Origin: Candidatus Thorarchaeota archaeon
GTDB lineage: Archaea; Asgardarchaeota; Thorarchaeia; Thorarchaeales; Thorarchaeaceae
Direction of reading: 5' to 3'
Length of the DNA: 53,784 nucleotides
Assembly (NCBI GenBank): GCA_003345595.1
Contig: PRDI01000025.1
Span: 1 to 53,784, forward strand
The position numbers and the translations under genes are program-made. The notes beneath the pieces are model-generated. The model had not been told where the DNA came from, made no database searches, and saw only the letters and a list, made by a program, of their open reading frames with translations. Shown piece after piece: positions 6,922-53,784 of the stretch (positions within the stretch are counted from its first letter, which is position 1; the number at the start of each line of letters is the position of its first letter).

Positions 6922-6927
6922 GAGGAA

Positions 6928-7764
6928 TCAGATCTCCCGTAACCTTGGATTGAATACTTCATCCATACCCGCATGAATGACGAAGATGGCTGTCAGTAAT
7001 GCTGTCAACACGATGCCGGGGGGAATGAACCACCACCAGATATTCCACCAGAACGGGACCGTGGTTTCGTGCTGGGCCCAGTAGAGCATATAACCTAGGG
7101 TAATGGTGCGGGTTGTGGACACGCCTATCATGCTGAGTGCTGATTCGGCAAGTATGGATGTGCCGGTCAATATCACGAACACCATCATGATGTAAGCCAG
7201 CATATTCGGCAAAACCTCTGTCACCACAATTTGCACGCTATTTTGCCCCGACATTCGCGCCAGATTTACGAATTCTCTTTCCTTTAGAGTGAGCACTTGC
7301 GATCTTATGCTCCTCGCTGCCCACGGCCAAGAAGTCACGGCTAGTATCACGCCTATCAGAACCAGATTCAGTCCGCGTACGACCGATGCGATAATTATGA
7401 ACAGAGGTATCAGGGGGAGAACCAATGCAAGGTTGGTAGCTAAACTGGAAATCTTATCTGCTAGCCCTCCTCTATACGGACCCACTGCCCCCACTAGGAT
7501 TGCTATCAGTGTACCCAATCCTCCTGCGACCAGACCGACTACCAGTGAATTGCCGATAGCACTGCATAACTGGGTAAACACGTCCTCTCCGAAACTCGTC
7601 GTACCCAAGATGTGCGCAAAGCTGGGAGGCCGACCCATAAGACTCAGGTCCATGTAGTAGGGATCTCCAAGGAGGAAAGGTCCTACTGTTCCAAGCAAGA
7701 TGAGAATTACCAAGACGGCCAAACCAATCATGAACTTCCGGCTTCTCAGTAACAGCTCCCACAT
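6928..7764 (-). CDS. oppC: Opp/Dpp-type ABC permease
   Basis: PPSFAHILGTTSFGEDVF, EAA loop REFVNLARMSG, WWWFIPPG, FNPRLR. ATG 7764 lies 5 nt after GGTGA (alternative start GTG 7773). Confidence 0.92.
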   Translation of the reverse strand: MWELLLRSRKFMIGLAVLVILILLGTVGPFLLGDPYYMDLSLMGRPPSFAHILGTTSFGEDVFTQLCSAIGNSLVVGLVAGGLGTLIAILVGAVGPYRGGLADKISSLATNLALVLPLIPLFIIIASVVRGLNLVLIGVILAVTSWPWAARSIRSQVLTLKEREFVNLARMSGQNSVQIVVTEVLPNMLAYIMMVFVILTGTSILAESALSMIGVSTTRTITLGYMLYWAQHETTVPFWWNIWWWFIPPGIVLTALLTAIFVIHAGMDEVFNPRLREI

Positions 7765-7769
7765 TCCTA

Positions 7770-37655: not shown

Positions 37656-38333
37656 TCAGGACTGATTGCTGCTCGCGCCTTTCTCCTTTCTCCAGACGTA
37701 GACCGAGATCAACAACAGGTAGCCGATTACGGCGAAGTAGATTGCCCACTCTAGAGTTGGAAGCATCCAGAAGTCGGGACGGTCAACGAGACTGCCAATG
37801 TCACCATAGTCACCGAACAGAAATGCCGCAAAGACCACGACATTGAGAAGCCCCACGATTGACAACGCCTTGTGGACCTTTGACGTGTGCTGCAACAGAA
37901 TCGCAAGGGTCCATAGCCCTGTCATGACCATGCCGCTCAAGAAGAATGACATCGCGGCGGCCGTATGCTCTGCAAGGAAGTTCTCCGGAAAGATACCCAC
38001 GAAGATTATCGCGACCGATGAGAACACGCCTACAACGGCCGCAAGTTTGGCGATGATGTTGTCCATGTACAGTCCAAGTCCGATCATGAATGGAATGAAC
38101 AGGACACCTGCGTAAATCAGACCCACATTGAACATGATGGAGAGTTCTGAGACTCCGACCTCACCCAGTTCTGAAATGAAATGGTTGAATATCGAAAACG
38201 GCTCGCCGTTTCGACCTACATAAGGGATCATCGCTCCAAGAACAAACACCAGGCCAACAACCGATCCTGCTATTCCCCACAAGGGAAAGCGCTTGGCGCC
38301 AACAAGCTTCAGGAGACCCTGCTTCATCTGCAT
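37656..38333 (-). CDS. DUF998-family membrane protein
   Basis: NHFISELG, FN.GLI.AG, VGIFPEN...H; about six TM helices. Start may be 38333, 38327 or 38360. Confidence 0.8.
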   Translation of the reverse strand: MQMKQGLLKLVGAKRFPLWGIAGSVVGLVFVLGAMIPYVGRNGEPFSIFNHFISELGEVGVSELSIMFNVGLIYAGVLFIPFMIGLGLYMDNIIAKLAAVVGVFSSVAIIFVGIFPENFLAEHTAAAMSFFLSGMVMTGLWTLAILLQHTSKVHKALSIVGLLNVVVFAAFLFGDYGDIGSLVDRPDFWMLPTLEWAIYFAVIGYLLLISVYVWRKEKGASSNQS

Positions 38334-38646
38334 TCCCAACTCACTTCCATAGCTGAACACTCATCGGGTGGGTGCTCTAGTAATGGCGATCGTAGCCTGA
38401 CTGATTCGACGTGAAAAGGCTATGGATATCTAGGCTGGCCGTCAAGATCAGAACAACACGATACCCGCGACGGACGGGGATTTCGTTCAGCCGCCAACTC
38501 CTCGCCGACAGAACCATGACCGAGTGAAAACCTCTCGCAGGAACTGCAGCAGAGCAACTAGGTTCCCGTGTGGACTTGGCTTTGCTGGGCTACCTTCGCT
38601 GTACGGTGGTTCTCCACTCTTCGGATGGACCTAGCCAGGCTTTCGA

Positions 38647-39666
38647 TCAGATCAGATCGGTGACTATCTTGGCGGACCACTTCTGTGCAGCAATGGCGTC
38701 CTTATATGTGATCTCCGGTTTCTCCTTTCCGAGACAGGCCTGAACAAAGTGCGCGATGAGCTGCTTGTGACCCCATACCTCAGGACCCTTGGGTTCCAGT
38801 TTCCAGAGCTCCTTTTCGTCACCTTTGCCATAGAGTGTGATCTTGTCGCTCCAATCAACGACTATTGTCTTGCCGTTGTTACCGAATACCTCGAACCTGC
38901 TTGTGTCCTGGCCCTTTGCAACAGAAGAACCGTATATCAGATTGCCGACGACGCCGTTCTTGAGTCTAATGATTCCAACGGTCTGATAACCCTTGAAGCT
39001 ATCGACTCCCTCGACTGGCATATAGCAGGCCGCCCATTTTACGTTCTCTATCTCGGTCTTGAAGAACCATCTGAACATATCGAGAGACCAGACTGATAAC
39101 GTGAAGTCGGGATATCCTCCACTCTTCTTGATATCCCATGCCCATGATGAGAGCGGCCATTGTCTGGCTAGGTCTTCTGCGGCTATGAATTCCCTGAAGG
39201 TCAGGGCGATGGGTTTCCCTATGGCTCCGACTTCGAGGAGTTCTTTTGCTTTCACATAACCAGGTGCGTGCCTGAAATTCAGTATCGGCATAAGCACGAC
39301 GCCCTTCCCCTCAGCGAGTCTGCCCAGTTCCTCAGCCTTCTGAAGCTCAGGTGCCATGGGCATCTCCAAGAACACGTGCTTGCCACCCTCGATCGCCCTC
39401 TTCGCCAGCTCATAGTGATCGGGTGTGGGGACAGCGATGCATACTGCATCCACGTTCGGATCCACGCATACGGCATCCCAATCATAGTAGACATTGATGC
39501 CATACTTTTCTTTCAGCTGGATGGCGATTCTCTCGCTTTCCCGACCTTTTCTGGCGACCACTCCCAACAGCTTCGAATCGGGCACCTTTCTAAATGATGG
39601 GACGTGAGCGGCTCCACCAACAAAACCTAGTCCGGCGCACACAGTGCGTACTTCTTTCTTCGACAA
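38647..39666 (-). CDS. Gfo/Idh/MocA-family NAD(P)-dependent oxidoreductase
   Basis: GLGFVG...H, VDAVCIAVPTPDH, GKHVFLEMP (variant of EKP), NFRH, GAIGKP, SGG. Confidence 0.9.
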   Translation of the reverse strand: MSKKEVRTVCAGLGFVGGAAHVPSFRKVPDSKLLGVVARKGRESERIAIQLKEKYGINVYYDWDAVCVDPNVDAVCIAVPTPDHYELAKRAIEGGKHVFLEMPMAPELQKAEELGRLAEGKGVVLMPILNFRHAPGYVKAKELLEVGAIGKPIALTFREFIAAEDLARQWPLSSWAWDIKKSGGYPDFTLSVWSLDMFRWFFKTEIENVKWAACYMPVEGVDSFKGYQTVGIIRLKNGVVGNLIYGSSVAKGQDTSRFEVFGNNGKTIVVDWSDKITLYGKGDEKELWKLEPKGPEVWGHKQLIAHFVQACLGKEKPEITYKDAIAAQKWSAKIVTDLI

Positions 39667-40010
39667 GTGCTGTTGCTCCTTGTTCTATCGAGTAGCCCGG
39701 GTGTCACGATGCGGTTTCGCGGCTGGGCACGTGTACTGCAATCCAGTCCGCTCTCACGACCGCTGAGCGTCTTTTCTCAAGCTTTACGATGTATGGCTTC
39801 GGCCTATTAAGAGCTGAGGCTAGTCCGATTATGTTGGGCCGGGAAGGCACCATTGCAGCGTGAACGTCGGGGACAGTAGGTGAAAAGTCGTCTTCAATGG
39901 CCATCAGAAACCTGTGGCATCCGACCCGCTCAGATTCTGCCGAGCATGAGGAAGTTGTCGTCACTGGGCAGATGGATTAATGAGGATGGCTCAACCAGTT
40001 CAGGGTTGAA

Positions 40011-40613
40011 TCATGTCTTTGCTAGCTTCAGAGTGTCGAATGACAGAAATCCTACGTATGCCAGCGAGGCAAACACTGTGTACCATTCTACGATAGCTCC
40101 GCCCAGTGTGAACGCAAAGACCAGACTCGAGATGGCAACCACGAGGCCATAGAGCGCAATCAGCTTCATGAACCTCGGATGCAGCAAGAGAGCAAGGCTG
40201 ACCAGAATCAAGACAAGGAAGTTGAGCTCAAAGAAGACCCCGGACGCTAGAATGTGGGGGGCTCCCTTGTCCTCAGAGAAAACCCCAATCATGATGAGAG
40301 CAACAGCAGAACAGACGCCAGCCAGTTGTCCAGTGATGAGTATGCCCCTTTCCAGCTTTCCCTCGGTGAACCATCGACGCAGTCCAATGAAGAAGGGGAT
40401 GAGCGCCAATCCCGTGAGAATGCAGCCTGCGTTGTAGAAGTAGGCACCGAATGGGCTATAGTTGAAATCGCCCAACCGGCTCAGGTAGTGTGTGAGTGGT
40501 CCTAAGGGACCGGGGTACAAGGCCCACGAAATGAAAGTGAATGTGCAGTAGGACAGGATCACGAGCGCACCGCTGATGCTAGTCAGCGGCCAATTGGAGA
40601 AACTGAGTTTCAT
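40011..40613 (-). CDS. DUF998-family membrane protein (second, distant paralogue)
   Basis: THYLSRLG, YN.GCILTG, IGVFSED...H, EW; multiple TM helices. Confidence 0.75.
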   Translation of the reverse strand: MKLSFSNWPLTSISGALVILSYCTFTFISWALYPGPLGPLTHYLSRLGDFNYSPFGAYFYNAGCILTGLALIPFFIGLRRWFTEGKLERGILITGQLAGVCSAVALIMIGVFSEDKGAPHILASGVFFELNFLVLILVSLALLLHPRFMKLIALYGLVVAISSLVFAFTLGGAIVEWYTVFASLAYVGFLSFDTLKLAKT

Positions 40614-40744
40614 ACTCTGTTACCTTGAGTCTTCTCAGAGCACAGCTTTCTCATAAACACTCACCCAGAAGGCAGTCAGTCCATGAACTTGCACCAACCA
40701 AAATGCGTTGGACATTACAGTCAGTATTGTAGAGCGGAGGCTGA

Positions 40745-41695
40745 CTATGTCTGCTGCCCTATCAACACGCCAAGATTCCTTGTAAACACTGGGATATCCT
40801 CGAGCGTTCTAGTGGGTGAGAATCCTCTCATCTTTCTGGAAACGGTCTGACGAATGCTCTCGTCAACTGTCCCTTCTAAGATCGCCTTAGTTTCTTCTTC
40901 GGTGAGGTCTTCGAGCCGCAATGTCCTATTGATTGCATGGCGGTTGGCAGGGCACTTGAGCTGGCATCTCATACATCCCATGAGTGCGTTATGAGCATTG
41001 ACTGGCATCCACTCAGGGAACACTCCTTCAACCTCATTGTACAAAGGCACGCATCTGCTGATGTTTATGACGAAGTTGTCTTCGGTTATGCATCCATTCG
41101 GGCACTCTTTCATGCAGACTGTGCACTTCTTGCATTTGTCCATCATCCGCATATCGGTCCAGTCATCATGCTCGAAAGTGAAGTCTGTGAAGTAAGCGTG
41201 GAGTGTGACCAGGCTGCCCATCCCGTCAACGTAGCACAGGTTGTTTCTGCCATACCTACCAAGTCCGCTTCTCACGGCAAGCGTCTTCATGAGCACCTGC
41301 CCGTTGGCCTTCTCGATCCTGTGACCCGGCTCATCTATGATTCTCCGGGCAACGGTGTTCTGTAATTGCTCTTGCGAGAACCCGATGTCATAGTAAGCAG
41401 GAGGTACTAAGAACTCAAGGCGCCGCCCCTTATGATAGAATCCAGCAACTGCCAATGGAGTGAAGACAGCCATGATGATCAGAGATTGTGCGTTAGGGAA
41501 CGACTCAGGAATCGCGAATCTCTTGCCATCTACGTAGCTCCTGAAGGTCTTGTCCTCGCACATCTTGCCCTCGCGATACAGTGTGTCGATATGTTTCTGG
41601 AGCTCAGTCAAATGCTCGACAGAGGTAGCCCTAAACCTAAAGTGCGACTCAGGTACGTTCCCATCTTTGGATTGAGCTTTTGTTTTCTCAGTCAT
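40745..41695 (-). CDS. QueG/reductive-dehalogenase-superfamily protein with two 4Fe-4S motifs
   Basis: KTLAVRSGLGRYGRNN...GS (cobalamin-binding region of QueG/RdhA); CKKCTVCMKECP; C...GCMRCQLKCP. Confidence 0.8.
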   Translation of the reverse strand: MTEKTKAQSKDGNVPESHFRFRATSVEHLTELQKHIDTLYREGKMCEDKTFRSYVDGKRFAIPESFPNAQSLIIMAVFTPLAVAGFYHKGRRLEFLVPPAYYDIGFSQEQLQNTVARRIIDEPGHRIEKANGQVLMKTLAVRSGLGRYGRNNLCYVDGMGSLVTLHAYFTDFTFEHDDWTDMRMMDKCKKCTVCMKECPNGCITEDNFVINISRCVPLYNEVEGVFPEWMPVNAHNALMGCMRCQLKCPANRHAINRTLRLEDLTEEETKAILEGTVDESIRQTVSRKMRGFSPTRTLEDIPVFTRNLGVLIGQQT

Positions 41696-41961
41696 TACTT
41701 ATGCCTCAACACTACTCAGTCTAGCCTTCCGACGGATAAGCGACAGATGCAGGGCTTCTCGACCCTCGAATGCAGACTAAGAAGGATTGGTTCAGCGCAA
41801 TGAATAGGCAGTCAGGAATGCTTGGCTGCTCCAGTTACAGAGCAGGCTGTTTGCCTGGTCAGCGTCCCTTCGACTTGAATTAGCTCAGTGACGCCATGCT
41901 GATTTAATAGGGGCTTCTTCACATCGGCTGGCATTTCCATTTGCTGCCAATGGTGATAGAA

Positions 41962-43374
41962 ATGGAATCCGCGGGCCTAGAGAAGCTGAGTCGCAGAAAC
42001 CTCTGGGGATGGGCATTGGGTTCTATCCCTACCGGTTTGTTGGCCTATATCTTCAGTCTCAAGTATGTTGAGTACTTCTACAATAATCTGGCCCTAGCCC
42101 CACTATACTTCATCATCGGGCAAGCAATCTATCTTGTCGTCAATGCGGTGAACGATCCCCTCGCAGGACAGTTGTCTGACCGGACGAGCCGAAAGCGATG
42201 GGGCAGCCGGCGCCTGATATACATAAAGTATGGCGGTCCAATTTGGGCATGGACCTTCCTATTGGTGTGGTTTCCATGGAGTTTCAACAACCAGATAGTC
42301 ATTTTCATTCACTACGTTGTGTCACTCTGTGCTTTTGACACGATGCTCACAATCGTGCTGTTGGTATGGTTGGCTGTCCTACCTGAGATGACCATGGACA
42401 TCGATGAGCGAAACAAGGCGCAGTTCATCGCAGGAGTGATGGGCACGATTGTGGTCTTGCCTGTGTTCATCGTAATTGCTGCCATGAGACCGGACTCAGA
42501 AGGGTTCCGGTTCCTGATGATCCTGTTTGCTGTCATCTCGATGGTATTCCTAGAGCTGACAGCGCACTTCTGCCACGAGCGCCCCGAATTCCAGAGTGAC
42601 AGAGTGTACTCTCTGAAGGAGTCTGTCAAGGCGACCTTCAAATCGAAGACGTTTCTGGTCTATGTTGGTTTCTATTTCTGTCAGAACTTCCTCAGCACCT
42701 TGGGCCTGAGTTACTTCTTCATCTACATGCTGCTGCTCCAGAAAGTGACACCTGGATTGAACGTCGTACTGTTCTTCTTTGTGATATACTTCATCGTGGG
42801 CTATGCGGGCAACATCGTGTGCATGAAGCTTCAACGCAAGTGGGGACTGAGAAGAATCATCCTAAGATTCGGAGTTGTTCGAGTAGTTGGCTCGATAGTT
42901 CTGTTTCTGATAATCCTCGTTCCCATATTCGAGCCGCTGATATGGTATGGACTCGTCGTCGTCACCTTCTTCGGTGGCTACGGCATCTTCCAGATTCCAA
43001 TGCAATATCTAGCCATAGATGAGGATGAAATCCTCTGCGGCTCCCGGAGGGAAGGCATGTTCATTGGAGTAATGGCTCTGTTGACCAAGCCCGCGAACAG
43101 CCTTGGCCCAATCATTGCAACGATGATACTAACGACATTCGGCTATATCCAAGGCGGTGCTCTTGCAGTTCAGCCCGAGTCAGCGTTCTTGGGAATAAAG
43201 ATCATCTGGCTCTTGGTTTCAGGAATCGTGGCGTCTTTGGGTCTGGTTTCTATCTACTATTATCCTCTTCATGGCGAGAAACTAGATGAGATGCAGAGAA
43301 AGCTGACTGAACTGCACAAGCGGAAAAGAGAGGCTGTCTTGGGGCAAGTCCAATCAGCTAAGGGGTCCTCCTGA
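41962..43374 (+). CDS. MFS transporter, glycoside-pentoside-hexuronide (MelB/GPH-like) family
   Basis: NAVNDPLAGQLSDRT..RWGSRR, LPEMT..DER, IDEDE...G.RREG, YYPL. ATG 41962 lies 5 nt after GGTGA. Confidence 0.88.
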   Translation: MESAGLEKLSRRNLWGWALGSIPTGLLAYIFSLKYVEYFYNNLALAPLYFIIGQAIYLVVNAVNDPLAGQLSDRTSRKRWGSRRLIYIKYGGPIWAWTFLLVWFPWSFNNQIVIFIHYVVSLCAFDTMLTIVLLVWLAVLPEMTMDIDERNKAQFIAGVMGTIVVLPVFIVIAAMRPDSEGFRFLMILFAVISMVFLELTAHFCHERPEFQSDRVYSLKESVKATFKSKTFLVYVGFYFCQNFLSTLGLSYFFIYMLLLQKVTPGLNVVLFFFVIYFIVGYAGNIVCMKLQRKWGLRRIILRFGVVRVVGSIVLFLIILVPIFEPLIWYGLVVVTFFGGYGIFQIPMQYLAIDEDEILCGSRREGMFIGVMALLTKPANSLGPIIATMILTTFGYIQGGALAVQPESAFLGIKIIWLLVSGIVASLGLVSIYYYPLHGEKLDEMQRKLTELHKRKREAVLGQVQSAKGSS

Positions 43375-43518
43375 GGCTAGGTCCTCCAATCATCGAATGC
43401 GTCGGGCGTTCTGGGTTTTCCCAGATGCGCCAATGTAGTATGAGGGCGTTTGCCAAGAACCTATATCGGATGCGTGCCATACTACTCTCGGATTTCCATC
43501 ACGCGCCATGAAGTCTTT

Positions 43519-43683
43519 TCATAATGACAGTGAAAGCTTGGAATCCTTGACAGCGTGTTTTGTTATCTCAAGATTGCACGATCTGTGCTTTATGCACCAT
43601 TCCTCACACTTCTTTGCCCAGTGCTCATCATGGTACAGCAGATGGCACTGCTGACATTCGTAGAGATCGCCTACCTTCTTCAT
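43519..43683 (-). CDS. Small Cys/His-rich putative metal-binding protein (54 aa)
   Basis: YECQQCHLLYHDEHWAKKCEEWCIKHRSCNLEITKHA: CxxC, CxxxC, C and His pattern typical of small Zn-finger-like proteins. Confidence 0.7.
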   Translation of the reverse strand: MKKVGDLYECQQCHLLYHDEHWAKKCEEWCIKHRSCNLEITKHAVKDSKLSLSL

Positions 43684-43815
43684 AATCCAGCGTTCAACCT
43701 GAATCAAAACAGATGTCATGATAGAAGAACCTGTGGGAAGGGATAAGGAGTGCTGTTCGCACGCAGAATCAAAAGACGCTCCAGAATCTATCCCGGTTCT
43801 CTGCAGAACGGCCGA

Positions 43816-44982
43816 CTAGTCGGGAATCCGTATTGGATACGAGCCATACTTCTCGCGCACTCTCATCACAGCCTCCCATCTGTCCACTGTGATGGCTGGA
43901 TTGATGCTGTGGCCGCTACTAAAAATGTAGCCGCCGCCAGGCGCGAGTTCTCTTATCAGCCGCTTGCTGTATTCCTCGATTTCGGTAACTGTCCCCACGG
44001 CAAGCATCACCGGGCTGATGTTTCCCACGAAGGTAATCTTGTCCTTGTACTTCTCTGCAAGTCTGAAGATGTCGTAATCGGGGTTGGCAGTCGTGGGTTC
44101 GATAGGATTGAGTGCATCCACGCCGCACTTTATGATGTCTTCAAAGATTAGCATCAGATCCCCATCCGAATGCAGGAGTATTCTGGAGTCCCGTTTGTGA
44201 GCTTCATCGCACATCTGTTTCAACCATGGGAACACATAGGTTCTGTAGTTCTGAGGGCTCATGAACAGGCCGTTCTTGAAGCCGTAGTCATCCCATACCA
44301 GAATCAGTTCAGCCCCCTGGTCTGCGAGAATCTTCACGAGCTCCACAGCCAGCTTGCCATTGTCGTCAAATACCTTCTTGGCTTGCTTCGGGTGTCCGAG
44401 TATTCGAGAGAACGTTTCAAGACCGAAGGCTTCCCAGCTTGGTTCCATCATTCCTCCTATTGCGGGAACTGAGAGTATCTCATTATTCATCTGCTTTTGG
44501 ACGTCCTTGCCGGCGAGAAATGCAGCCAACCTCTTTGGTTCGTTCGGGTCCGGACGTTCCCACTTCTCGTAGTCCTCAAAGCTGTGAAGATGGCCTCCAC
44601 GATATCCAAGGATCAGTGTGCCATCTCCTTCGTATTTCTCGAATTTCATCAAACGCCCGAACTCATCGATCATACCACCCTCGACGATCTTCCGCTGCTG
44701 ATGCGTGACGAAGCTTAGACCGATGTCAATCTTGACGCGACGTAGAAACTCATAGGAATTGACCATGCCCTTCGCTAACCATGAACGATTGCTCATGGCG
44801 TAGTTGGCTACTCGCGTCTTGAAAGGGAGGTGCTTGAGAGCATCTATCCCAGAACTCAGGCCAGCAGCCGCAATGCCATAATGTTCCATAATCGTGTTAT
44901 TAGTGAATGCACTCTCGAATGCAGGTACGCGATCAGGTTCTTCGTGATTTAGGGCCTTCATCACCCGTGTTGGTGCGTCCAT
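43816..44982 (-). CDS. URO-D/methyltransferase-superfamily protein (DD...HSD...H ligand type)
   Basis: RV.KALNHEEPDRVP, DEFG, WDDYG...LFMSP, LLHSDG, NPIE, TFVGNI, GGGYIFSSGHSI. Confidence 0.88.
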   Translation of the reverse strand: MDAPTRVMKALNHEEPDRVPAFESAFTNNTIMEHYGIAAAGLSSGIDALKHLPFKTRVANYAMSNRSWLAKGMVNSYEFLRRVKIDIGLSFVTHQQRKIVEGGMIDEFGRLMKFEKYEGDGTLILGYRGGHLHSFEDYEKWERPDPNEPKRLAAFLAGKDVQKQMNNEILSVPAIGGMMEPSWEAFGLETFSRILGHPKQAKKVFDDNGKLAVELVKILADQGAELILVWDDYGFKNGLFMSPQNYRTYVFPWLKQMCDEAHKRDSRILLHSDGDLMLIFEDIIKCGVDALNPIEPTTANPDYDIFRLAEKYKDKITFVGNISPVMLAVGTVTEIEEYSKRLIRELAPGGGYIFSSGHSINPAITVDRWEAVMRVREKYGSYPIRIPD

Positions 44983-44987
44983 CGACT

Positions 44988-45617
44988 CTAGACCCCCATG
45001 AGAGCCTTGATATGCCTCACTCCATCGATGGCATCAGCGGCGTAGTCGTCTGCGCCCAGTTCTTCGGCGAGCTCCATGTTCAGTGGTGCTCCTCCGACAA
45101 TTATCTTCACCTTGTCGCGGAGGCCAGCGTGTTTGAGGGCTTCGCCAATGACCGAAATCTCTCTCATCGTCATTGTCAACAGACAGCTCAGTGCAAGAAC
45201 CTTGGCATCATGCTTTCTCATGGCTTCAACGATCTTCTCGCTTGGACAATCCACTCCAAGGTCAATGACCTCAAACCCTGCGGAAACGAGCATGGTGATC
45301 AGGATGTTCTTGCCAATGTCGTGATTGTCCCCCTTTACAGTGGCCACAACAATTGGCTTTCTCTTGCCCTTCTCCTTGACTGTCAAGCGCGGCTTCAGAA
45401 CGTCAAATGCCTCCTTCATGGTTTCGCCGGCTAAAACGAGCTCAGTGAGGAAGTACTCCTTCTGCTCATACCTGCGTCCAACTTCATCCATGCCTGCTGT
45501 GAGAGCCTTCAAGACATCATTGGGGTCCACATGTTTCTCAAGCTCCTGCTGGACTGACTTGGCGATGTTGTCCACATCTAGCTCTACAATCATCTTTGTT
45601 ATGTCGTCAAGAGTAAT
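44988..45617 (-). CDS. Methyltransferase cognate corrinoid protein (MtaC/MtbC-like)
   Basis: Cap domain GMDEVG..YE..EYFLTELV; DNHDIGKN (DxHxxG) B12 motif; IDLGVD; SCLLT; VGGAP; GADDYA.DA. Probable ATT start at 45617 or 45620; first ATG is at 45593. Confidence 0.92.
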   Translation of the reverse strand: MTLDDITKMIVELDVDNIAKSVQQELEKHVDPNDVLKALTAGMDEVGRRYEQKEYFLTELVLAGETMKEAFDVLKPRLTVKEKGKRKPIVVATVKGDNHDIGKNILITMLVSAGFEVIDLGVDCPSEKIVEAMRKHDAKVLALSCLLTMTMREISVIGEALKHAGLRDKVKIIVGGAPLNMELAEELGADDYAADAIDGVRHIKALMGV

Positions 45618-45728
45618 AATACGCCAGCTCCTGCAATTGTCGTTGCTTCTCGCCCTCTGCAGAACGCAGTAATATCCTTTGTTTCACAGAAGGTTAATGA
45701 CCACCTTTGGACTCGTCAACGAAGCAGG

Positions 45729-48485
45729 ATGATGGTACCCATGTCAAGCAAGCCATTCGGATCAGGCCATTTCGGTGAGTGGATCACAGACGAATTCGGT
45801 CTGCCTGCGTATCACTATACCTGCAATCAACTCACAGACCCCAAGGCACATACACCTACGAATGAGCTCTGGCGCTCTCCTACGGAGCATTTACATCAGG
45901 TTGGGAATGATAGACTTGTCGGTGTTGCTTCGAATTATGGACATGTTCAGGTTCGGCAGGATGAAGGGAGTCCGAAGTTCCTGAATGACTACGACCCCGC
46001 GAGCCATCAATACGGCGGCGGGTTCGGGTATTTGACAGATGGCAAGACTGTACTCAGTACCTACTACTCCGGGAAGGCCGAATCCTTTGACAGAGTCTTT
46101 GGCGCAGGATACTACAGAAAGACAGTCAAGGGAAACGGGCTGGTAGTGGACCATGCTGTCTTTGCTCCCTATGGCGACGATCCCATTCTTATCTCGAAGG
46201 TCACGATAGAGAATCAACGGGAAGAGCCTGCGGATCTGAGATGGATCGAGTATTGGGGTTGTCAGCTGTATCAGTTTTCATACAAAGCATTCATGCGGTC
46301 TGTCGTATCAAAGAAGCATCCTAACCTCTATCGTAGAAGACTCGCAACGCGGTTTGCAGACCATATCAGTGTCCTGAGTAGCGGAAGAGGGCTGGAAGTC
46401 AAGAAACAATTCATGGGTCATGCCCTGCCTGACATGTTAGGATGGGGGTTTCTGAATTTCATGCTGAATTTCGTGGGAAAGGAAATGACTGGTGGACCAG
46501 TCAGATCCCCAGTGAAACAGGCAGTGCTCGAAGACCTCTCTCCTCCAGACGTTTTCCTCGTATCTCTCGATGCGCCCTGTGATGCCGTGTGCACCAATGC
46601 GGCAGGTTTCTTTGGTGAGGGAGGCGTGGTTTCGCCTGACGGCATACGGGGTTTTCTATCTGAGAACGTTGAGGGAAGTGGCCCAGAGACAGGTCTCTTC
46701 CTCGAGCGGCGTGCCCATCTGAAGCCCGGCGAGAGCAGGTCGATGTACTTTGCCTATGGTTATCTGCCCGAAGGCTTCACTCTTGAGTCTCTCATCTCGA
46801 AATATGAGAAAGATCTTCCTCAGTTGTTGAGCCGATCGTGCGAACAATGGAAGAAAAACCGCATCCAGCTGGACGTCGGTGATGAGAAGTGGGTCGATCG
46901 CGAACTCGCATGGCACAATTACTACCTGAGAAGCAACCTCACGTATGATAGCTTCTTCAGAGAGCACATTCTATCTCAGGGGCATGTGTACCAGTACCTG
47001 ATCGGATTCCAAGGTGGAGCGCGTGACCCGCTGCAACACGCTCTACCATTCGTATACTCCGACCCGACCATTGTGAAGGAAGTTCTGAGGTACACCTTAA
47101 AGTCGATGACCCCTGACGGCAAGATTCCGTATGGCATTGTTGGCTGTGGGATGTACATGCCATCGCCGTTCCATCCAAGTGATCAGGAGATGTGGCTCCT
47201 TTGGCTCGCCGGCGAGTACGTGCTCGCCACGAGAGACTTGGCGTTTCTGAACGAGGTCATCCCAACGTATCCGGTGTATGGTCACAAGGCGAGGACCATG
47301 CGCGTCGACGATCTCCTGTCCGCCTGCTATCGTCGACTGGTTGTATTGACAGGGGTCGGGCAACACGGCATTCAGAGACTGGTGAAGGGTGACTGGAATG
47401 ACATGATGGTCATGGGATACGTTCCGAAGGAGCAACGTCCAGTTGTCGAGGAAGTCGGTGAGAGCGTTCTCAATGCGGCAATGGCCACATATGTCTTCGA
47501 CGTTTATTCAAGGCTGCTGACCTATGCAGGTAACAAGAGTCTGGCGGAGGATGTCATGAAACATGCCGCCGCTCAGCGGTCCGCGGTACAAGCACAGTGG
47601 ATGGGCAAGTGGTTCAAGAGGGCATGGCTCAGCGAGGATATCGGATGGGTCGGAGAGGACAATCTCTGGTTGGAACCGCAGCCCTGGGCTATCATTGGGG
47701 AATCTGTGGACTCTGAGCAAAGACGGATTCTAGTACAGTGGATAGACAAGGAAGCAAGAAAGCCATCGAAGATAGGTGCCATGATTCTTGGAAAAGCAGA
47801 CCCAAAGATGGTCGGCCCAACAGGAGTGGGAACGAATGCGGGGATATGGCCCTCAATAAATGGTACCCTCGTATGGGCTCTGTCGCTCGTGGATGGTAAG
47901 ATGGCGTGGAACGAATGGAAGAAGAACACGCTTGCCACGCATGCTGAGGAATACCCAGATATCTGGTATGGTATCTGGAGCGGCCCCGACACCTACAACT
48001 CTGAACTCTCCGTTCGTCCAGGAGAAACCATCTTCGGTACCGAAGACGAGATTCCTCATGAAACCGATGAAGAGAAAGCCAAGGACTCCGACATCGGTAA
48101 GATCTTCGAGGTCAAATGGACAGACTTTCCAGTGATGAACATGCATCCGCATGCATGGCCCCTCTACAGTGTTGCCAAGCTCATGGGAACAGAATTCACT
48201 GAGCAGGGGGTCGACCTCGCTCCATCGCTGCCGAAGGACGAATACAGGTTTACGTCTCCTCTGCTCGAGCTGGAGAAAACAAAGCAAGGTTACCGAGGTA
48301 GGTATTCGCCAATGACTGCAGGGACTTGGAGAATCACGCTCAAGCTTGGTGAGAAAGAGCGGAACCGAGTCAGTGTTTTGACTGTTAATGGAAAGGATCA
48401 GAAGCTGACCTCTGAAGGCGACAAGGTTGTGCTGACTGGAGCAAGCGCGCCAGACCGGCCGCTCACATGGTCGCTCAGATTCTGA
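45729..48485 (+). CDS. GH94-like (six-hairpin) glycoside phosphorylase/hydrolase, cytoplasmic
   Basis: GARDPLQH, GDWND (catalytic-acid motif of GH94), GESV, LEPQPWA, NAGIW; no signal peptide. Confidence 0.75.
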   Translation: MMVPMSSKPFGSGHFGEWITDEFGLPAYHYTCNQLTDPKAHTPTNELWRSPTEHLHQVGNDRLVGVASNYGHVQVRQDEGSPKFLNDYDPASHQYGGGFGYLTDGKTVLSTYYSGKAESFDRVFGAGYYRKTVKGNGLVVDHAVFAPYGDDPILISKVTIENQREEPADLRWIEYWGCQLYQFSYKAFMRSVVSKKHPNLYRRRLATRFADHISVLSSGRGLEVKKQFMGHALPDMLGWGFLNFMLNFVGKEMTGGPVRSPVKQAVLEDLSPPDVFLVSLDAPCDAVCTNAAGFFGEGGVVSPDGIRGFLSENVEGSGPETGLFLERRAHLKPGESRSMYFAYGYLPEGFTLESLISKYEKDLPQLLSRSCEQWKKNRIQLDVGDEKWVDRELAWHNYYLRSNLTYDSFFREHILSQGHVYQYLIGFQGGARDPLQHALPFVYSDPTIVKEVLRYTLKSMTPDGKIPYGIVGCGMYMPSPFHPSDQEMWLLWLAGEYVLATRDLAFLNEVIPTYPVYGHKARTMRVDDLLSACYRRLVVLTGVGQHGIQRLVKGDWNDMMVMGYVPKEQRPVVEEVGESVLNAAMATYVFDVYSRLLTYAGNKSLAEDVMKHAAAQRSAVQAQWMGKWFKRAWLSEDIGWVGEDNLWLEPQPWAIIGESVDSEQRRILVQWIDKEARKPSKIGAMILGKADPKMVGPTGVGTNAGIWPSINGTLVWALSLVDGKMAWNEWKKNTLATHAEEYPDIWYGIWSGPDTYNSELSVRPGETIFGTEDEIPHETDEEKAKDSDIGKIFEVKWTDFPVMNMHPHAWPLYSVAKLMGTEFTEQGVDLAPSLPKDEYRFTSPLLELEKTKQGYRGRYSPMTAGTWRITLKLGEKERNRVSVLTVNGKDQKLTSEGDKVVLTGASAPDRPLTWSLRF

Positions 48486-48527
48486 CATAACGTGAAGTAG
48501 CAGCGTTTCAAGAGATGTCGATTGAGA

Positions 48528-49571
48528 ATGAAACCACTTGACCTCACCCTGTCAGCAATTGATGGCACTGCGGAGAGAGTCCCGTTCAATCCATTCATCA
48601 TGCATCTCGCGGCGGCAATTGACGGCATTGATTACAGCGGAATCTACTGCCAGGATGCAGATGTCCTTGCAGAGGCTCAGACGAAGTGTGCCAGGACCTT
48701 CGGCGTTGATCATGTCAATGTATCGACGGACGCTTACAGAGAAGCCAGTGCATGGGGCATTGAGATAGACTTCTCTGGTCACACGCCTGTAGCCAAGACT
48801 CATCTGGATCCAGCCGGCTTTGAGTCGGTCGAGAAACCTGATCTACAATCCAGTCCCAGAATCAAGAATCGAGTCGAAGCCGTGCGGCTTCTCAAGCGCA
48901 GTGTGGGCAACGAGCAATGCATCGTGGGATGGATAGAAGCCCCGTTCGCAGAGATATGCTGCCTGTTTGGTCTCATGGAAGTGCTAAAGCTGGGACGTAA
49001 TCCGAAGTGGAACGAGATGGTTAAGGACTTCACCAAACGAGTCATCCCTGTTCAGCTGGAGTTCGCCGAGATGCAGATTGAAGCGGGTGCAGACATCATC
49101 GGAGTGGGAGATTCGGCGGTTTCTCAGATAGGTCCCAAGCGCTACAAGGAGGCATGCCTCGAATCAACACAGAAACTGCTCAAGGACATCGCCAAGCAGG
49201 TGCCTGTCCTTTACCACGTTTGCGGAGATAGCTCAGTGGTTGACAAAGAAGGACGATCCATGCTCGAGCTTGTCGCCGACTCAGGGACTTCCATTCTGGA
49301 CATTGACTATCAAGTTGATATGACCACAGCCAAGCAGAAGATTGGCGACAGGGTGTGCATCCGAGGAAACACAAACACTGCTATGCTTGGCGATCGCCTG
49401 TATTCGCCAACAAGGATAATCGGCGAGGTCACGCGGACTATCAAAGCCGGCAAGCCAGGAGGAAAGTACATGTTCTCTGCAGGATGTGAATGGCCTTGGG
49501 AACCTATTGATCTTGCTGCACGCAATCTGGGGATTGCCCGGACTCTGGTCGAGCGAATCGGTGGATACTGA
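48528..49571 (+). CDS. MtaA/CmuA-type methylcobalamin:thiol methyltransferase (URO-D superfamily)
   Basis: DAYREASAWG, GWIEAPF, AGADIIGVGDS, and the Zn motif YHVCG...SAGCE (HxC...C). Alternative start TTG 48522. Confidence 0.85.
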   Translation: MKPLDLTLSAIDGTAERVPFNPFIMHLAAAIDGIDYSGIYCQDADVLAEAQTKCARTFGVDHVNVSTDAYREASAWGIEIDFSGHTPVAKTHLDPAGFESVEKPDLQSSPRIKNRVEAVRLLKRSVGNEQCIVGWIEAPFAEICCLFGLMEVLKLGRNPKWNEMVKDFTKRVIPVQLEFAEMQIEAGADIIGVGDSAVSQIGPKRYKEACLESTQKLLKDIAKQVPVLYHVCGDSSVVDKEGRSMLELVADSGTSILDIDYQVDMTTAKQKIGDRVCIRGNTNTAMLGDRLYSPTRIIGEVTRTIKAGKPGGKYMFSAGCEWPWEPIDLAARNLGIARTLVERIGGY

Positions 49572-49572
49572 C

Positions 49573-50745
49573 ATGAACTCACGCCAAAGGGTACTCGCGG
49601 CACTGGATCATCAGACACCGGATAAGGTCCCACTTGATTTTGGCGGAAACCAGTCAGGCATTCACATCATAGCCTACAAACGACTGCTTCAGTACCTCGA
49701 CATCGAGGACAAGGAGATATGCTATTGCGACTTCTTGGAACAAGCGGTGCGACCGTGCGAGGAGCTGCTGAAACACTTCGAGATAGATGTCCGATGGTTG
49801 AGGCCGGAGTCCAGTATTGTCCCTGAGGACTTCGTCCCGCAAGTGGAGGGCAAGTACCAAGGTGTGTATGACCAGTTCGGAGTGTTCTGGGGAGATAATG
49901 CAGAGAAGAAGATTGAGGACATCCTGTACTATGATCCTGTCATCCATCCCCTGAGTGAGATGAAGACTGTACAGGAGATCAAGGAGTACAACTGGCCTGA
50001 TGGCACTGACAAGAAACGGATGAAGGGTTTGAGAGAGGAAGCCAGGCGGCTCAGAAGAACCACTGACTATGCCATTGCCACTCCGCCGCTCGGATGCATC
50101 TATGAATATACGACATTTCTGTTCGGGTTTGCGAAAGCATTGAGGCATCTGCAAAAGAACCCGGAACTGATAGTCGCCACCATGGAAGAGCTGGAGAAGT
50201 ACTGGACCGACTACGCGACTGCATTCCTCGATGAGGTCAAGTTCGGAAACGAGCACTATGTGGACATAGTAGCCAACAATGGAGACCTCGCCCAGCAAGG
50301 AGGTCCCATAATGAACCCGAAGACAATCTACGAACCGTTGATCAAGCCAATCGAAAAACGATTCTCAGCAAGAGTGCACTCTCTAGCTAATGTCAAAATC
50401 AACTATCATTGCTGTGGGTCGATACCTCTCTTCATTCCACACTTCGCTGAAATTGGATACGATGCCGTGAATCCTGTCCAGGTCGGTGCATATGACATGG
50501 AGCCGTGCAGTCTTAAGAAGCGATTTGGGGAATTGATTACATTCTGGGGCGGCATGTGTGATACTCAGAGTACTCTGCCTTTCGGCACGCCTGAGAAGGT
50601 TCGTGATGAGGTGCATCACAATGTGGCGTGCCTCAAGCCAGGCGGCGGATACATCGCGGCCAATGTACATAACATAACCGGAGAGGTGCCAGCCGAGAAC
50701 ATAGTGGCAATGTTCGAAACTGCGAGAGAGTTCAGAGGATATTAG
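49573..50745 (+). CDS. URO-D/methyltransferase-superfamily protein (D...HCC...H ligand type)
   Basis: MNSRQRVLAALDHQTPDKVPLDFGG, DQFG, GDL..Q.GP, YHCCG, NPVQ, FWGG.CD, GGGYIAANVHNI. ATG lies just after the upstream stop. Confidence 0.88.
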   Translation: MNSRQRVLAALDHQTPDKVPLDFGGNQSGIHIIAYKRLLQYLDIEDKEICYCDFLEQAVRPCEELLKHFEIDVRWLRPESSIVPEDFVPQVEGKYQGVYDQFGVFWGDNAEKKIEDILYYDPVIHPLSEMKTVQEIKEYNWPDGTDKKRMKGLREEARRLRRTTDYAIATPPLGCIYEYTTFLFGFAKALRHLQKNPELIVATMEELEKYWTDYATAFLDEVKFGNEHYVDIVANNGDLAQQGGPIMNPKTIYEPLIKPIEKRFSARVHSLANVKINYHCCGSIPLFIPHFAEIGYDAVNPVQVGAYDMEPCSLKKRFGELITFWGGMCDTQSTLPFGTPEKVRDEVHHNVACLKPGGGYIAANVHNITGEVPAENIVAMFETAREFRGY

Positions 50746-50948
50746 TGGCTCTCTGTTGTTGACGGTTTCTCCCTTGGACAGCCAACTGCAGTCGAGTGAC
50801 TGCAAATCCGGTTATATTCCTCATGATTTCCCACCGGAATGTGTCAGCCTTCCCGGAAGCATCTGCAACCCGCTTTTCCGCATACACTCCAGACAGCATT
50901 CATTCATAACTGTCCTTCTACATATCCACAGCCGAGGTCTCATGTGGT

Positions 50949-53285
50949 TTGAAGCACAACAAGGAGTCGATGCTGGGAGTAGGAATCATGACTATTTTCC
51001 TGTTGAGCTCTGTCATGTGCCCTGCTGCTGCAGCACTGACTGTAATCAATGAAGAGCAGTTTGAACGTGTCTATACTCCGAACGCCAATAATCACACGTA
51101 CGTCTATGCCGAGCCTGATGTGCTATCGGGGGTGACCACGTCGACGCTGCATGTTAATCAGGATCTTCAAATGAGGAGATACGCGTTTGATGGCACGGGC
51201 TGGACTTACTATGACGCAGCTTACCCAGGACCCAATGATGTGCCATTTCCCTGGAGCGCATTCAATGTCTGGGCAGGTACCACCTTCACCAACACGTCGA
51301 TACTGCCCTCCTTCATCACCGCTGTTGCGGCGGACGGCGGACCGGCTGTCTTGAACTCGACACTTACGCGTTCGTCATTCGAACTCAAGATGGGACAGCT
51401 TTCGACTCTGGTCCTCGAACCCAATCTGTACTACTTTGGAGTGCTCGGGATTGCCGCTGAGGAGTTCATATATCTCACAGTTTCCTCCAGACAAGTCAAT
51501 TCCCCGAGCTGGCAAGTCACGGTTGTTGACCCTGCGGGCCATTTCATGGGGAGCATCGAAGGGTCTGAGAATGCCAGCACTGTTCTCCCATTCAGACCAT
51601 CGGGACCGGGTACGTACTTCGTCATGATAATTGGCGAAGCGAACTCTCAGAGCCTGCTCATCTTCGATCTGTTGCCACAAGCAGTGGCACCCACACAAGT
51701 GGCGTTTGGCCAACTCGTGCAGGGCGTTCTCGAGGATAGTGAGTTCGTGGTCACGAGTGATTCCGGAACGGTGGTTGATACTAAGAAGACTCCAGCAGCC
51801 CACACATACAAGTTCTACTCACAAGAGGTGGCATTGATATCTTACTCATTCAACTACCCGGGTGAGAGCGAGCCCGTCGATCCACCCATAGGGACGCGGA
51901 TAGAACTCTCCAGCGATGCATTCACGTCCATGTTTGATTACGGCCAGAGGTACAACAACATAATCAACTCACCACAAAGCAGCATCCTGTACTACCGATC
52001 CTCAAACGGAGAAACGTACTACCTTACCGTGATTGGACCTGGCAATGTCAAGTACACGCTGTTCCACGAAGACAACGTCGCTCAGGACCTGCCTGTGAAC
52101 CAAGAGTTATCTGTGATAAACAACCAGGGCTATGCGGTGAAGAGCGCCTACAGCCTATACCTGTCTCAGGACTCTTTCATGAAGCTGAACTCCAGTGCAT
52201 TGTTAGCAGAATACGCTTGGAGAGCGTGGGCAGTCTACGGCAATGATATGTACATTTCCCAGAACCTGCAATGGGCGGCCACACTTCAGTCCTCCTCGTT
52301 CTACTACCTCCCCGCGGGATATTATGTCTTCGAAGTCACAGCTGGTCCTGATACATCTGCTCAGTTCGAGTTCAACATCGGACCGGTAGTCGACGCGTCC
52401 ACGGCCAGTATCGCGAGAGTGGGCGGCTTCCGTGTGAATACAGATACGATGACTTATTACAATACAACTCTGAAGCTGCTGAATCTTGCCAACATCACAG
52501 TAAGAGCCAACTTGGCGTTCTACGACCGATACATGATTCTTTCGTCCAGTTCGACCCCGATACTGGCAAACCGTGTGAACGGAACCCACTGGGCTCCGCA
52601 TCCCTCCTACAGCAACTCCACGAGCTTTGTGACTACGAACACATTGACAGAGGGGTACTCTCTCGTCGCAGTGTGTACCTACAGGGTGTCTAACAACACT
52701 CAAGGAGCGACAAACGACTATTCCGACTATGAAGTCAATTACGGTATCGAATGTGTGGATTACACCAGTAGCTACTTCAACGGTACATTCAATCTTGATG
52801 TTGGCGCTGGCCCCGTAGAACACAACTTCACACTGCCACTCCCCGGAGAGACAACAGAGAACTATCAGGTTGGACTAAGCGTACCCAAGGGTATCTGGTT
52901 CAATGTCACCATCATAGCTCATGATGCTGACACTTTCTCCGCAGTCCTTCTTCAGAACTGGCAGTCCAGATCACACAGGACTCAGTGGGCGGATCTCAAC
53001 GATGAACTTGTGGGGAGCATTGGAACACAGCTATCGTTCCAATTTGGCTCGATAAGTGACTCGATGAAACTGATCCTCAGTGTTGGCAGAGACCTGTCCG
53101 ACAACGGGTCATTATATGTGAGGATTACGCCTTTCAACACCACCACCTTCATAGGTCCCCCTGTGCTGACTGTGGGACCGCCTGACTTCCTGTCTGGCCT
53201 TTTGGTCTATGCAGTTCCGATTGCGATTGGCGCTGCGGCAATCGTGATAGTAGCAGTTGTCTATTTCAAGAAGTACAAGAAATAG
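50949..53285 (+). CDS. Membrane-anchored surface glycoprotein with tandem beta-sandwich (PPC-like) domains
   Basis: Signal peptide; beta-rich units such as PGTYFVMI, GETYYLTV, LPAGYYVFEV; many N-x-S/T sequons; C-terminal TM helix plus KKYKK. Confidence 0.75.
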   Translation: MKHNKESMLGVGIMTIFLLSSVMCPAAAALTVINEEQFERVYTPNANNHTYVYAEPDVLSGVTTSTLHVNQDLQMRRYAFDGTGWTYYDAAYPGPNDVPFPWSAFNVWAGTTFTNTSILPSFITAVAADGGPAVLNSTLTRSSFELKMGQLSTLVLEPNLYYFGVLGIAAEEFIYLTVSSRQVNSPSWQVTVVDPAGHFMGSIEGSENASTVLPFRPSGPGTYFVMIIGEANSQSLLIFDLLPQAVAPTQVAFGQLVQGVLEDSEFVVTSDSGTVVDTKKTPAAHTYKFYSQEVALISYSFNYPGESEPVDPPIGTRIELSSDAFTSMFDYGQRYNNIINSPQSSILYYRSSNGETYYLTVIGPGNVKYTLFHEDNVAQDLPVNQELSVINNQGYAVKSAYSLYLSQDSFMKLNSSALLAEYAWRAWAVYGNDMYISQNLQWAATLQSSSFYYLPAGYYVFEVTAGPDTSAQFEFNIGPVVDASTASIARVGGFRVNTDTMTYYNTTLKLLNLANITVRANLAFYDRYMILSSSSTPILANRVNGTHWAPHPSYSNSTSFVTTNTLTEGYSLVAVCTYRVSNNTQGATNDYSDYEVNYGIECVDYTSSYFNGTFNLDVGAGPVEHNFTLPLPGETTENYQVGLSVPKGIWFNVTIIAHDADTFSAVLLQNWQSRSHRTQWADLNDELVGSIGTQLSFQFGSISDSMKLILSVGRDLSDNGSLYVRITPFNTTTFIGPPVLTVGPPDFLSGLLVYAVPIAIGAAAIVIVAVVYFKKYKK

Positions 53286-53291
53286 GGAATA

Positions 53292-53326
53292 GGACCTGGC
53301 ACAAGCCAGGTCCCCACTTTCTTTTC
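53292..53326 (+). terminator. Hairpin plus U-rich terminator
   Basis: GGACCTGGC-acaa-GCCAGGTCC (53292-53313), then CCACTTTCTTTTC, starting 7 nt after the stop. Confidence 0.65.
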
Positions 53327-53511
53327 TGGAACCGGTTTCTGCACCACATGACAGTTGGGGGTCTTTCGCTCGCCCGTTTCTGGGGTGGTTTCTGCCTACG
53401 CCTAGCTGAGATTGAAGGCTTGACGTGCATCTCTCGTCACAAAGGCATCTGTGCCATACAGGCGTACTAACATTGATATGAAAGAGAGCCGAGTATGAGT
53501 ATTGGGCACAT

Positions 53512-53784
53512 ATGAGAACACTGCGGCATAAGGTGCTGGTTGTCATATTGGTTGTTACAATGACATTCGTAGGCATCTTCATAGCTTGGCCTGGTCTGGG
53601 GGGTCCTCAACTGGTTGCTGACTGCGGGCGATTCTGCTACCTCAGTCAGGTATACGACGACAACGACAACAAGACATACACGGTCGAGTTCGCTGGTGCT
53701 AACTTCACATTCCTATACTGGCACTACACTGGGCTTCAGGTTTGGAACGGTACGACTGTGACTCTCACGGACCAACCAGACAGG
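53512..53784 (+). CDS. Secreted or membrane-anchored hypothetical protein, truncated by the window edge
   Basis: MRTLRHKVLVVILVVTMTFVGIFIAWP...DNKTYTVEFAGANFTF...WNGT is open to the end: basic N-terminus, hydrophobic helix and sequons. Confidence 0.7.
   Translation, partial: MRTLRHKVLVVILVVTMTFVGIFIAWPGLGGPQLVADCGRFCYLSQVYDDNDNKTYTVEFAGANFTFLYWHYTGLQVWNGTTVTLTDQPDR

Follow-up and report, generated by a model that had tools for sequence, protein, structure and literature searches.

The window, the complete 53.8-kb contig PRDI01000025.1 (53,784 nucleotides (nt)) of a Candidatus Thorarchaeota genome (GCA_003345595.1; 2.73 Mb, 83% complete), raises the question of what an enzyme with the fold of glycoside hydrolase family 94 (GH94) does beside a corrinoid (B12 carrier) protein, three proteins of the UroD fold (here UD1, UD2 and UD3) and a glycoside transporter. 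The genes form a cluster at 41941-50745 arranged as two divergent operons, and the proteins of the window have their best relatives in Thorarchaeota and other Asgard archaea. The GH94-like gene is linked to UroD-superfamily genes in a conserved and reciprocal manner and is sometimes fused with them into a single chain. The most likely function, put forward tentatively, is that of a conserved catabolic module for the corrinoid-dependent demethylation of an imported methylated glycoside, in which a first methyltransferase (MT1) would load the corrinoid protein and a second (MT2) would unload it.

Gene content and linkage of the cluster

A sequence-only reading of this DNA had picked out a GH94-like gene, an MtaA-type methyltransferase, two further URO-D genes, a corrinoid protein and a transporter, and all of these are recovered by domain matches (Table 1). 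The observation is confirmed by the presence of the genes and by the distribution of PF01208, which has five matches in the entire genome with three of them inside these 7 kb, and the clustering is far beyond chance. The genes are closely packed, with 36 nt between the GH94-like gene and UD1, 1 nt between UD1 and UD2 and 5 nt between the corrinoid gene and UD3. In the list of open reading frames (ORFs) UD2 starts at 49486; its conserved part, however, starts only with the ATG at 49573, a single base past the UD1 stop, and a database gene call gives the GH94-like gene an alternative start at 45741.

Table 1. Features of the cluster with coordinates in the window; MT1 and MT2 are the first and second methyltransferase, aa is amino acids and BRE is the B recognition element.
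Feature	Coordinates	Strand	Domain matches and remarks
MFS_2/GPH-type glycoside:cation symporter, 477 aa	41941-43374	+	PF13347, 143.8 bits
UD3, UroD-fold, 388 aa, candidate MT1	43816-44982	-	PF01208, 101 bits, C-terminal two thirds only
Corrinoid (B12 carrier) protein, 201 aa	44988-45593	-	PF02607 and PF02310
Divergent promoter region (putative), 135 nt	45594-45728		Two BRE/TATA-like boxes
GH94-fold enzyme, 918 aa, predicted cytoplasmic	45729-48485	+	Supersandwich PF06165 and catalytic domain PF17167
UD1, MtaA-like UroD-fold, 349 aa, candidate MT2	48522-49571	+	PF01208, 156 bits, full length
UD2, UroD-fold, 390 aa, candidate MT1	49573-50745	+	PF01208, 62 bits

The divergent region between the corrinoid and GH94-like genes was first put at about 110 nt and is longer when measured. 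Two boxes are present, GTAATATCC at 45669-45677 and CAGAAGGTTAATGA at 45687-45700, and the same pair (GTAATATTCTTTC ... AGAGATTAAT) occurs in the corrinoid/GH94-like intergenic region of most of the Thor- and Hermod-type loci compared (for example L001, L003, L006, L009 and L011). These conserved boxes can be read as putative archaeal promoters of the BRE/TATA-like kind.

A scan with the GH94-like profile over one genome per prokaryote species returned 80 loci with 50-66% identity, in which ORFs were called, clustered and matched to the window proteins. The archaeal loci come from Thor-, Hermod-, Hel-, Hod- and Loki-type and Atabeyarchaeia genomes and the bacterial loci from Acidobacteriota, Chloroflexota, Syntrophomonadaceae, Thermodesulfobacteriota, Actinomycetes and Opitutaceae. 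A UroD-superfamily gene lies within 10 kb of the GH94-like orthologue in 36 of the 46 archaeal loci and within 300 bp in 32 of them, and where at least 5 kb is available on both flanks an adjacent gene of this kind is found in 14 of 18, compared with a chance expectation of ~4% for a 20-kb window (estimated from about five such genes per genome). The order seen here, with transporter, UD3 and corrinoid gene on one side of the divergent region and GH94-like gene, UD1 and UD2 on the other, is repeated in 14 loci and is referred to as Thor-type. A transporter of the MFS_2 family adjoins the GH94-like gene in 19 of the 80 loci, in Thor-type and Loki-type layouts alike, and in four Thor-type loci a fusion of TrmB (a sugar regulator) with MEDS (a methylotrophy sensor) is located downstream of the operon.

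The linkage is also seen from the opposite direction. When the UD3 profile was searched over 301 Asgard genomes and flanks of 1.5 kb were inspected, 15 of the 17 closest UD3 orthologues adjoined a corrinoid gene, with the GH94-like gene also there wherever the flank was long enough. In some Chloroflexota the GH94-like and URO-D domains are joined with an SCP2 domain in single chains of 1445-1451 aa, represented by two database proteins (P0101 and P0106) and one locus (L019:9971-14323). The set of GH94-like, UroD, corrinoid and GPH genes recurs across Asgard lineages and in anaerobic bacteria. A lack of conservation in other genomes, which would have told against the sequence-only reading, is thus not what is seen, and the cross-domain linkage, the fusions and the reciprocal search together exclude chance adjacency. 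A URO-D protein with a C-terminal SCP2 lipid-carrier-like domain is encoded separately at L016:11490-13139. Longer fused forms (>1608 aa) were considered and discarded, the only matches being distant cyclic beta-1,2-glucan synthases.

Other lineages place the GH94-like gene in different surroundings. The Loki-type order is HAD, GNAT, FAD oxidoreductase, MFS_2, sulfatase, GH94-like, a single UroD-fold gene of the clade sister to UD2 and a xylose-isomerase-like TIM barrel; in L021, L022, L025, L035, L038, L047 and others the GH94-like gene sits between the sulfatase and the UroD-fold gene with two FAD oxidoreductases nearby, and some of these loci add a radical S-adenosylmethionine gene resembling anaerobic sulfatase maturases. 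This layout suggests a sulfated glycoside as substrate. In Acidobacteriota (L036, L037, L050, L059, L071 and L075) the GH94-like gene is accompanied by genes for a metallo-beta-lactamase fold, a single-domain MetE-like protein (PF01717, of the same superfamily as UroD), SDR, SIS_2, ROK, a sugar porter and a pyrroloquinoline quinone (PQQ) quinohaemoprotein dehydrogenase. About a third of the loci from this phylum have this arrangement, and any partner that the GH94-like gene has there is MetE-like. Three bacterial loci set the genes in plain glycan surroundings: the Anaerolineales locus reads GH5, GH31, URO-D, GH94-like, URO-D+SCP2, URO-D, corrinoid protein and GH3, the Syntrophomonadaceae locus LacI/SBP, URO-D, MFS, GH94-like, URO-D and corrinoid protein, and the Actinomycetes locus URO-D, ROK, sugar ABC transporter and GH94-like.

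The GH94-like enzyme and the candidate methyl-transfer proteins

The GH94-like protein is a distant relative of cellobiose phosphorylase that shares the fold of the GH94 phosphorylases over its whole length, an N-terminal sandwich and then an (alpha/alpha)6 barrel, at a sequence identity of about 16%. The best profile match is cellobionic acid phosphorylase (4zle, E 4e-24), followed by cellobiose phosphorylases down to 1e-18, and the predicted model (pLDDT 75, pTM 0.80), in which the active-site loops are of low confidence, has GH94 enzymes in all of its top 30 Foldseek matches. The catalytic aspartate is retained (GDWND against ADWND) as D558, which is invariant in 18 sequences and which we take to be the counterpart of Asp490 in the Cellvibrio gilvus cellobiose phosphorylase. 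The phosphate-binding histidine (His666 in C. gilvus) is not retained, the C. thermocellum IFCHNN segment lying opposite VWPSIN with an invariant Ser709, and an MHPH stretch aligns with what is presumably the "TGT" phosphate loop. The loss of the phosphate-binding site suggests that the enzyme probably hydrolyses its substrate or uses another nucleophile. All of the characterised GH94 enzymes among the profile and fold matches act on sugar-sugar bonds. The genome also encodes a 920-aa GH94-like paralogue (410 bits) on contig C64 (L082:6176-8938), placed next to a gene of the HpaB/4-hydroxybutyryl-CoA dehydratase family and with no UroD-fold neighbour.

UD1, UD2 and UD3 all exceed the Pfam gathering score of 23.9 bits for PF01208, and against the MtaA/CmuA model TIGR01463 they score 82.1 (UD1), 34.6 (UD2) and 52.1 bits (UD3), none reaching the curated cut-off of 235.4. 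They differ at the zinc-ligand positions of MtaA (H-x-C ... C). UD1 has the same H-x-C ... C pattern, with YHVCG opposite the MtaA HICG and the distal cysteine in GCEW kept in 15 orthologues. UD2 has H-x-C ... H (H279-x-C281 ... H366), and UD3 has H-x-D ... H (H271-x-D273 ... H358), with HSD opposite the MtaA HxC and GHS opposite the MtaA GC. CdmB lacks ligands there altogether. The UD3 orthologue profile matches MtaA (4ay7, E 7e-6) and, over ~140 C-terminal residues only, CdmB (9rui, E 1.2e-5), and the predicted UD3 model (pLDDT 82) has UroD and MtaA as its best folds with a TM score of ~0.6 and probability 1.00. UD2 gave no significant match to the sequences in the PDB, either as a single sequence or as a profile.

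A tree of the UroD-fold neighbours resolves four Asgard clades, namely UD1, UD2, UD3 and a Loki-type clade, in addition to bacterial branches. The UD2 and Loki-type clades are sisters (SH-like support 88) and between them are represented in 33 of the 46 archaeal loci, no other neighbour of the GH94-like gene being as constant. In-frame TAA codons in the UD3-like genes of one genus were considered as recoding, which was rejected because they are the genuine stop codons, past which the reading had run on for a few residues.

The sequence-only reading had held that no MT1 of the MtaB, MttB or MtvB type is present. No MtaB or MttB is found in the window; the statement about MtvB fails at the superfamily level because MtvB, MtoB and CdmB are themselves of the UroD fold, and MtvB, OdmB, VdmB, MtoB and CdmB have all been placed in the UroD superfamily (PMC13222342). 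By analogy with these enzymes, UD2 and UD3 are plausible MT1 enzymes. The division of labor proposed earlier, which gives the MT1 role to two non-canonical UroD proteins and the MT2 role to a single MtaA-like one, fits the metal-ligand patterns, and the enzyme roles themselves are assigned here as candidates.

The corrinoid protein consists of a cap (PF02607, 62.7 bits) and a Rossmann B12-binding domain (PF02310, 87.4 bits) with the DxHxxG motif as GDNHDIG, and scores 169 bits against TIGR02370, under the cut-off of 215. The transporter, an MFS_2 family member, similarly falls under the curated cut-off of TIGR00792 (gph) with 91.3 bits against 231.

Elsewhere in the genome, two RACo activase genes (PF14574) are located on contigs C96 and C117, with none inside the locus. 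One-carbon (C1) genes had been suggested as something to look for, and the tetrahydromethanopterin (H4MPT) branch is represented by an Mch gene and by an MtrH-like gene, the latter on another contig than the locus. Contig C96 (L083:3103-7917) carries a row of MtrH-like, RACo, corrinoid protein and an uncharacterised 499-aa gene, a candidate methyl-corrinoid:H4MPT route. A second methyl-transfer cluster on contig C59 (L081:352-13964), probably a quaternary-amine system, contains MFS_2, a UD2-like UroD-fold protein (407 aa), a full-length UroD-fold protein (344 aa), an MttB-family protein (480 aa), a corrinoid protein and an amino-acid permease. A full-length TrmB-MEDS orthologue (643 bits) is encoded on contig C99 (L118:6092-7507, minus strand), unlinked to the cluster and beside an alpha/beta hydrolase and an S-adenosylhomocysteine hydrolase.

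Proposed demethylation and its competing readings

In the proposed pathway, the GPH-type symporter would import a small glycoside that the GH94-fold enzyme would then cleave in the cytoplasm. UD2 (His/Cys/His) and UD3 (His/Asp/His) would act as MT1 and move a sugar O-methyl group to the Co(I) form of the corrinoid protein, and the MtaA-like UD1 (His/Cys/Cys) would pass it to a thiol acceptor. Alternatively, the methyl-corrinoid may be handed to the MtrH-like/H4MPT route; either protein could take the methyl group, since UD1 is in the operon and the MtrH-like gene is present elsewhere. The RACo activases would keep the cobalt reduced. The gene content, the folds, the ligand patterns and the linkage are observed, and from there we infer the direction of transfer, the MT1/MT2 assignment, the sugar O-methyl donor and the acceptor. 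Within this pathway a sugar is the more likely methyl donor because GH94 enzymes bind sugars in both subsites and the recurrent neighbors are all sugar genes. A broader proposal, possible and yet less secure, is that Asgard archaea and several anaerobic bacteria can carry out a cobalamin-dependent demethylation of aliphatic sugar methyl ethers or of methyl-esterified uronates; novel UroD-fold enzymes would use their His/Cys/His and His/Asp/His zinc sites to activate the ether oxygen, with the methyl group kept as a C1 unit.

Several observations weigh against corrinoid-dependent sugar demethylation. A nearby B12 carrier is the minority condition, a corrinoid gene lying within 10 kb in only 17 of the 80 loci and in none of 15 Loki-type loci. 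In five Acidobacteriota genomes no stand-alone corrinoid protein of ~200-240 aa was found, only long MetH-like ORFs and one 359-aa ORF. The constant core is thus a GH94-like gene with a UroD-superfamily enzyme among sugar genes, and B12 dependence is not general to these loci; with a MetE-like partner in Acidobacteriota and corrinoid proteins of the usual size not found in the five genomes, the core pairing may be independent of B12. CdhC and CdhD of carbon monoxide dehydrogenase/acetyl-CoA synthase (CODH/ACS) and ComA of coenzyme M (CoM) synthesis, any of which would bear on the methyl sink, were not found in the 83%-complete genome, so that of the C1 genes earlier named for checking only the H4MPT branch was recovered. 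UD2 and UD3 are very distant from any characterised enzyme, and the characterised UroD-fold MT1 enzymes act on aryl methyl ethers, halomethanes and methyl-thiols, never on aliphatic ethers (PMC13222342). Nothing computed firmly separates an O-methyl sugar from a methoxy-aromatic glycoside as the donor. The pathway first read from this DNA is thus partly supported, by the linkage, the ligand patterns, the H4MPT branch and RACo, while the Loki-type and Acidobacteriota GH94-like genes have no corrinoid gene near them.

The alternative that survives best, although unlikely, is that the module acts on glycosides of methoxylated aromatics, such as lignin-derived or plant phenolic glucosides, with the GH94-like enzyme freeing the aglycone and UD2 and UD3 serving as ordinary aryl O-demethylase MT1 enzymes. 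The O-demethylating MT1 enzymes of the UroD fold that have been characterised (MtvB, OdmB, VdmB and MtoB) all work on aryl methyl ethers (PMC13222342; PMC8630106), in which phenolate is a good leaving group, and the weak UD3 profile match is to CdmB, a relative of those enzymes. However, UD2 and UD3 appear remote from the aryl O-demethylases as judged by matches in the PDB, UD2 being without one and UD3 aligning only over its last 140 residues, and both retain a complete metal-ligand set that CdmB does not have. The Loki-type sulfatases could equally desulfate phenols and the transporter weakly matches glucuronide transporters; against this, sugars occupy both subsites of known GH94 enzymes and the recurrent neighbors are sugar-processing genes (ROK, SIS, SDR, GFO/IDH/MocA, GH5, GH31 and GH3) with no aromatic-handling gene among them.

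Somewhat more doubtful is that the partner of the GH94-like enzyme is a zinc-dependent enzyme of the UroD/MetE fold that operates without corrinoid O-demethylation, by direct transfer to or from a thiol or by some other reaction on the released sugar, with the corrinoid protein, UD3 and UD1 being a lineage-specific addition of the Thor-type loci. The Loki-type loci, in which a single UroD-fold gene accompanies the GH94-like gene and the nearest 10 kb contain no corrinoid gene, the pairing with MetE-like PF01717 in Acidobacteriota, where stand-alone corrinoid proteins of the usual size are missing from the five genomes examined, and the founding member of the UroD superfamily, a cofactor-free decarboxylase, are all consistent with such an enzyme. 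They are countered by the corrinoid gene directly adjoining the GH94-like gene in the window and in 16 other loci, by the conserved divergent promoter region common to the Thor-type loci and by the independent inclusion of a corrinoid protein in the Anaerolineales and Syntrophomonadaceae loci. In addition, five Loki-type genomes were found to encode 5-10 stand-alone corrinoid proteins each at other positions.

It is very improbable that the methyl groups are S-methyl rather than O-methyl, drawn from a methylthio-sugar or a methylated thiol released from the glycoside as in MtsA-type systems. The H-x-C kept by UD1 and UD2 is typical of thiol-activating zinc sites and in organisms other than methanogens MtaA-like proteins have been connected with the metabolism of methyl-sulfur and methyl-selenide (PMC10418091), but the His/Asp/His of UD3 is a harder ligand set that is atypical for thiolate binding and no sulfur-metabolism genes recur in the compared loci. 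Least credible of all is that the system runs in reverse as a biosynthetic methylation of glycans or glycosides, a possibility raised earlier and permitted in principle by the reversibility of corrinoid methyl transfers, or that the genes are mere neighbors without shared function, as what the loci contain is an importer, sulfatases, genes of sugar catabolism and a TrmB-MEDS regulator, and not glycosyltransferases, and the linkage described above excludes chance adjacency.

Other features of the window lie outside the demethylation module. A 778-aa ORF (50949-53285, plus strand) begins 203 nt downstream of UD2, in the place where related loci carry the TrmB-MEDS regulator; nothing in Pfam or NCBIfam matches it, and it has neither an informative Atlas neighbor nor a homologue in the 80 loci. 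A QueG/reductive-dehalogenase-like Fe-S protein, possibly B12-dependent, is encoded at 40745-41695 (minus strand), divergent from the transporter gene and with a paralogue on contig C121; it was rejected as a member of the cluster as it is not a conserved neighbor in related loci. A small Cys-rich ORF at 43519-43719 (minus strand; 54-66 aa, with CxxC and further cysteines), downstream of UD3 on the same strand, was likewise rejected as it is absent from related loci. An Rfam scan of 38000-53784 returned no RNA families. Further away, an oligopeptide-type ABC transporter occupies 2878-8885 and the middle of the contig (12308-37300) contains three giant ORFs of 2248, 2187 and 3670 aa.

Comparison with known systems

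Methyl ethers on sugars block glycan breakdown, as with 6-O-methylgalactose in red-algal galactans, 4-O-methylglucuronate in xylan and 2-O-methyl sugars in pectin. If the proposed function is correct, a B12 route would account for how methylated glycans are consumed where sediments and soils are anoxic, and it would tie the decay of polysaccharides to C1 metabolism and to methane precursors. Asgard archaea would then have a defined substrate niche, and aliphatic ethers would come within the reach of corrinoid methyl transfer. The locus is a concrete, expressible set of enzymes.

The closest known parallels are the three-component corrinoid O-demethylases MtvABC of Moorella, Odm/Vdm of Acetobacterium and MtoABCD of Methermicoccus, and the chloromethane system CdmBCA. 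As in these systems, a candidate MT1 of the UroD fold is encoded next to a corrinoid protein carrying DxHxxG, a candidate MT2 is a protein of its own, the genome encodes an activase of the ATP-dependent RACo type, and the association with anaerobes is strict. In a clear difference, the MT2 candidate is MtaA-like with the UroD fold and His/Cys/Cys rather than pterin-binding or MtrH-like; in Methermicoccus the MT2 (MtoA) is MtrH-like and feeds H4MPT (PMC8630106). Furthermore, there are two divergent MT1 candidates with full metal-ligand sets, which CdmB does not have, the set is part of an operon that also encodes a GH94-fold enzyme and a sugar transporter, and sequence similarity to characterised MT1 enzymes is marginal or absent.

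The methanogen systems MtaABC and MtbA, which transfer methyl groups from methanol and methylamines to CoM, share with the locus a corrinoid protein and an MtaA-type zinc enzyme with H-x-C ... C. The locus differs in having no MT1 of the MtaB or MttB type, in a genome where ComA and CODH/ACS are not found at 83% completeness, and in the score of UD1 against the MtaA/CmuA model (82 against a cut-off of 235 bits). Compared with the GH94 phosphorylases of cellobiose, chitobiose and cellobionic acid, the GH94-like protein has the same whole-length fold, domain order and catalytic aspartate in DWND and is distinguished by the invariant serine in place of the phosphate-binding histidine.

A search of the literature found no paper on corrinoid-dependent or anaerobic sugar demethylation or on the pairing of GH94-like and UroD proteins, the only route found in print being the cytochrome P450 of aerobic marine bacteria (PMC6292453). 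This enzyme demethylates 6-O-methyl-D-galactose in an O2-dependent reaction that releases formaldehyde (PMC6292453). The proposed module would be its oxygen-free counterpart, conserving the methyl group as a C1 unit where it would otherwise be lost; both systems would remove a methyl ether that blocks glycan catabolism, with an unrelated fold and cofactor in each.

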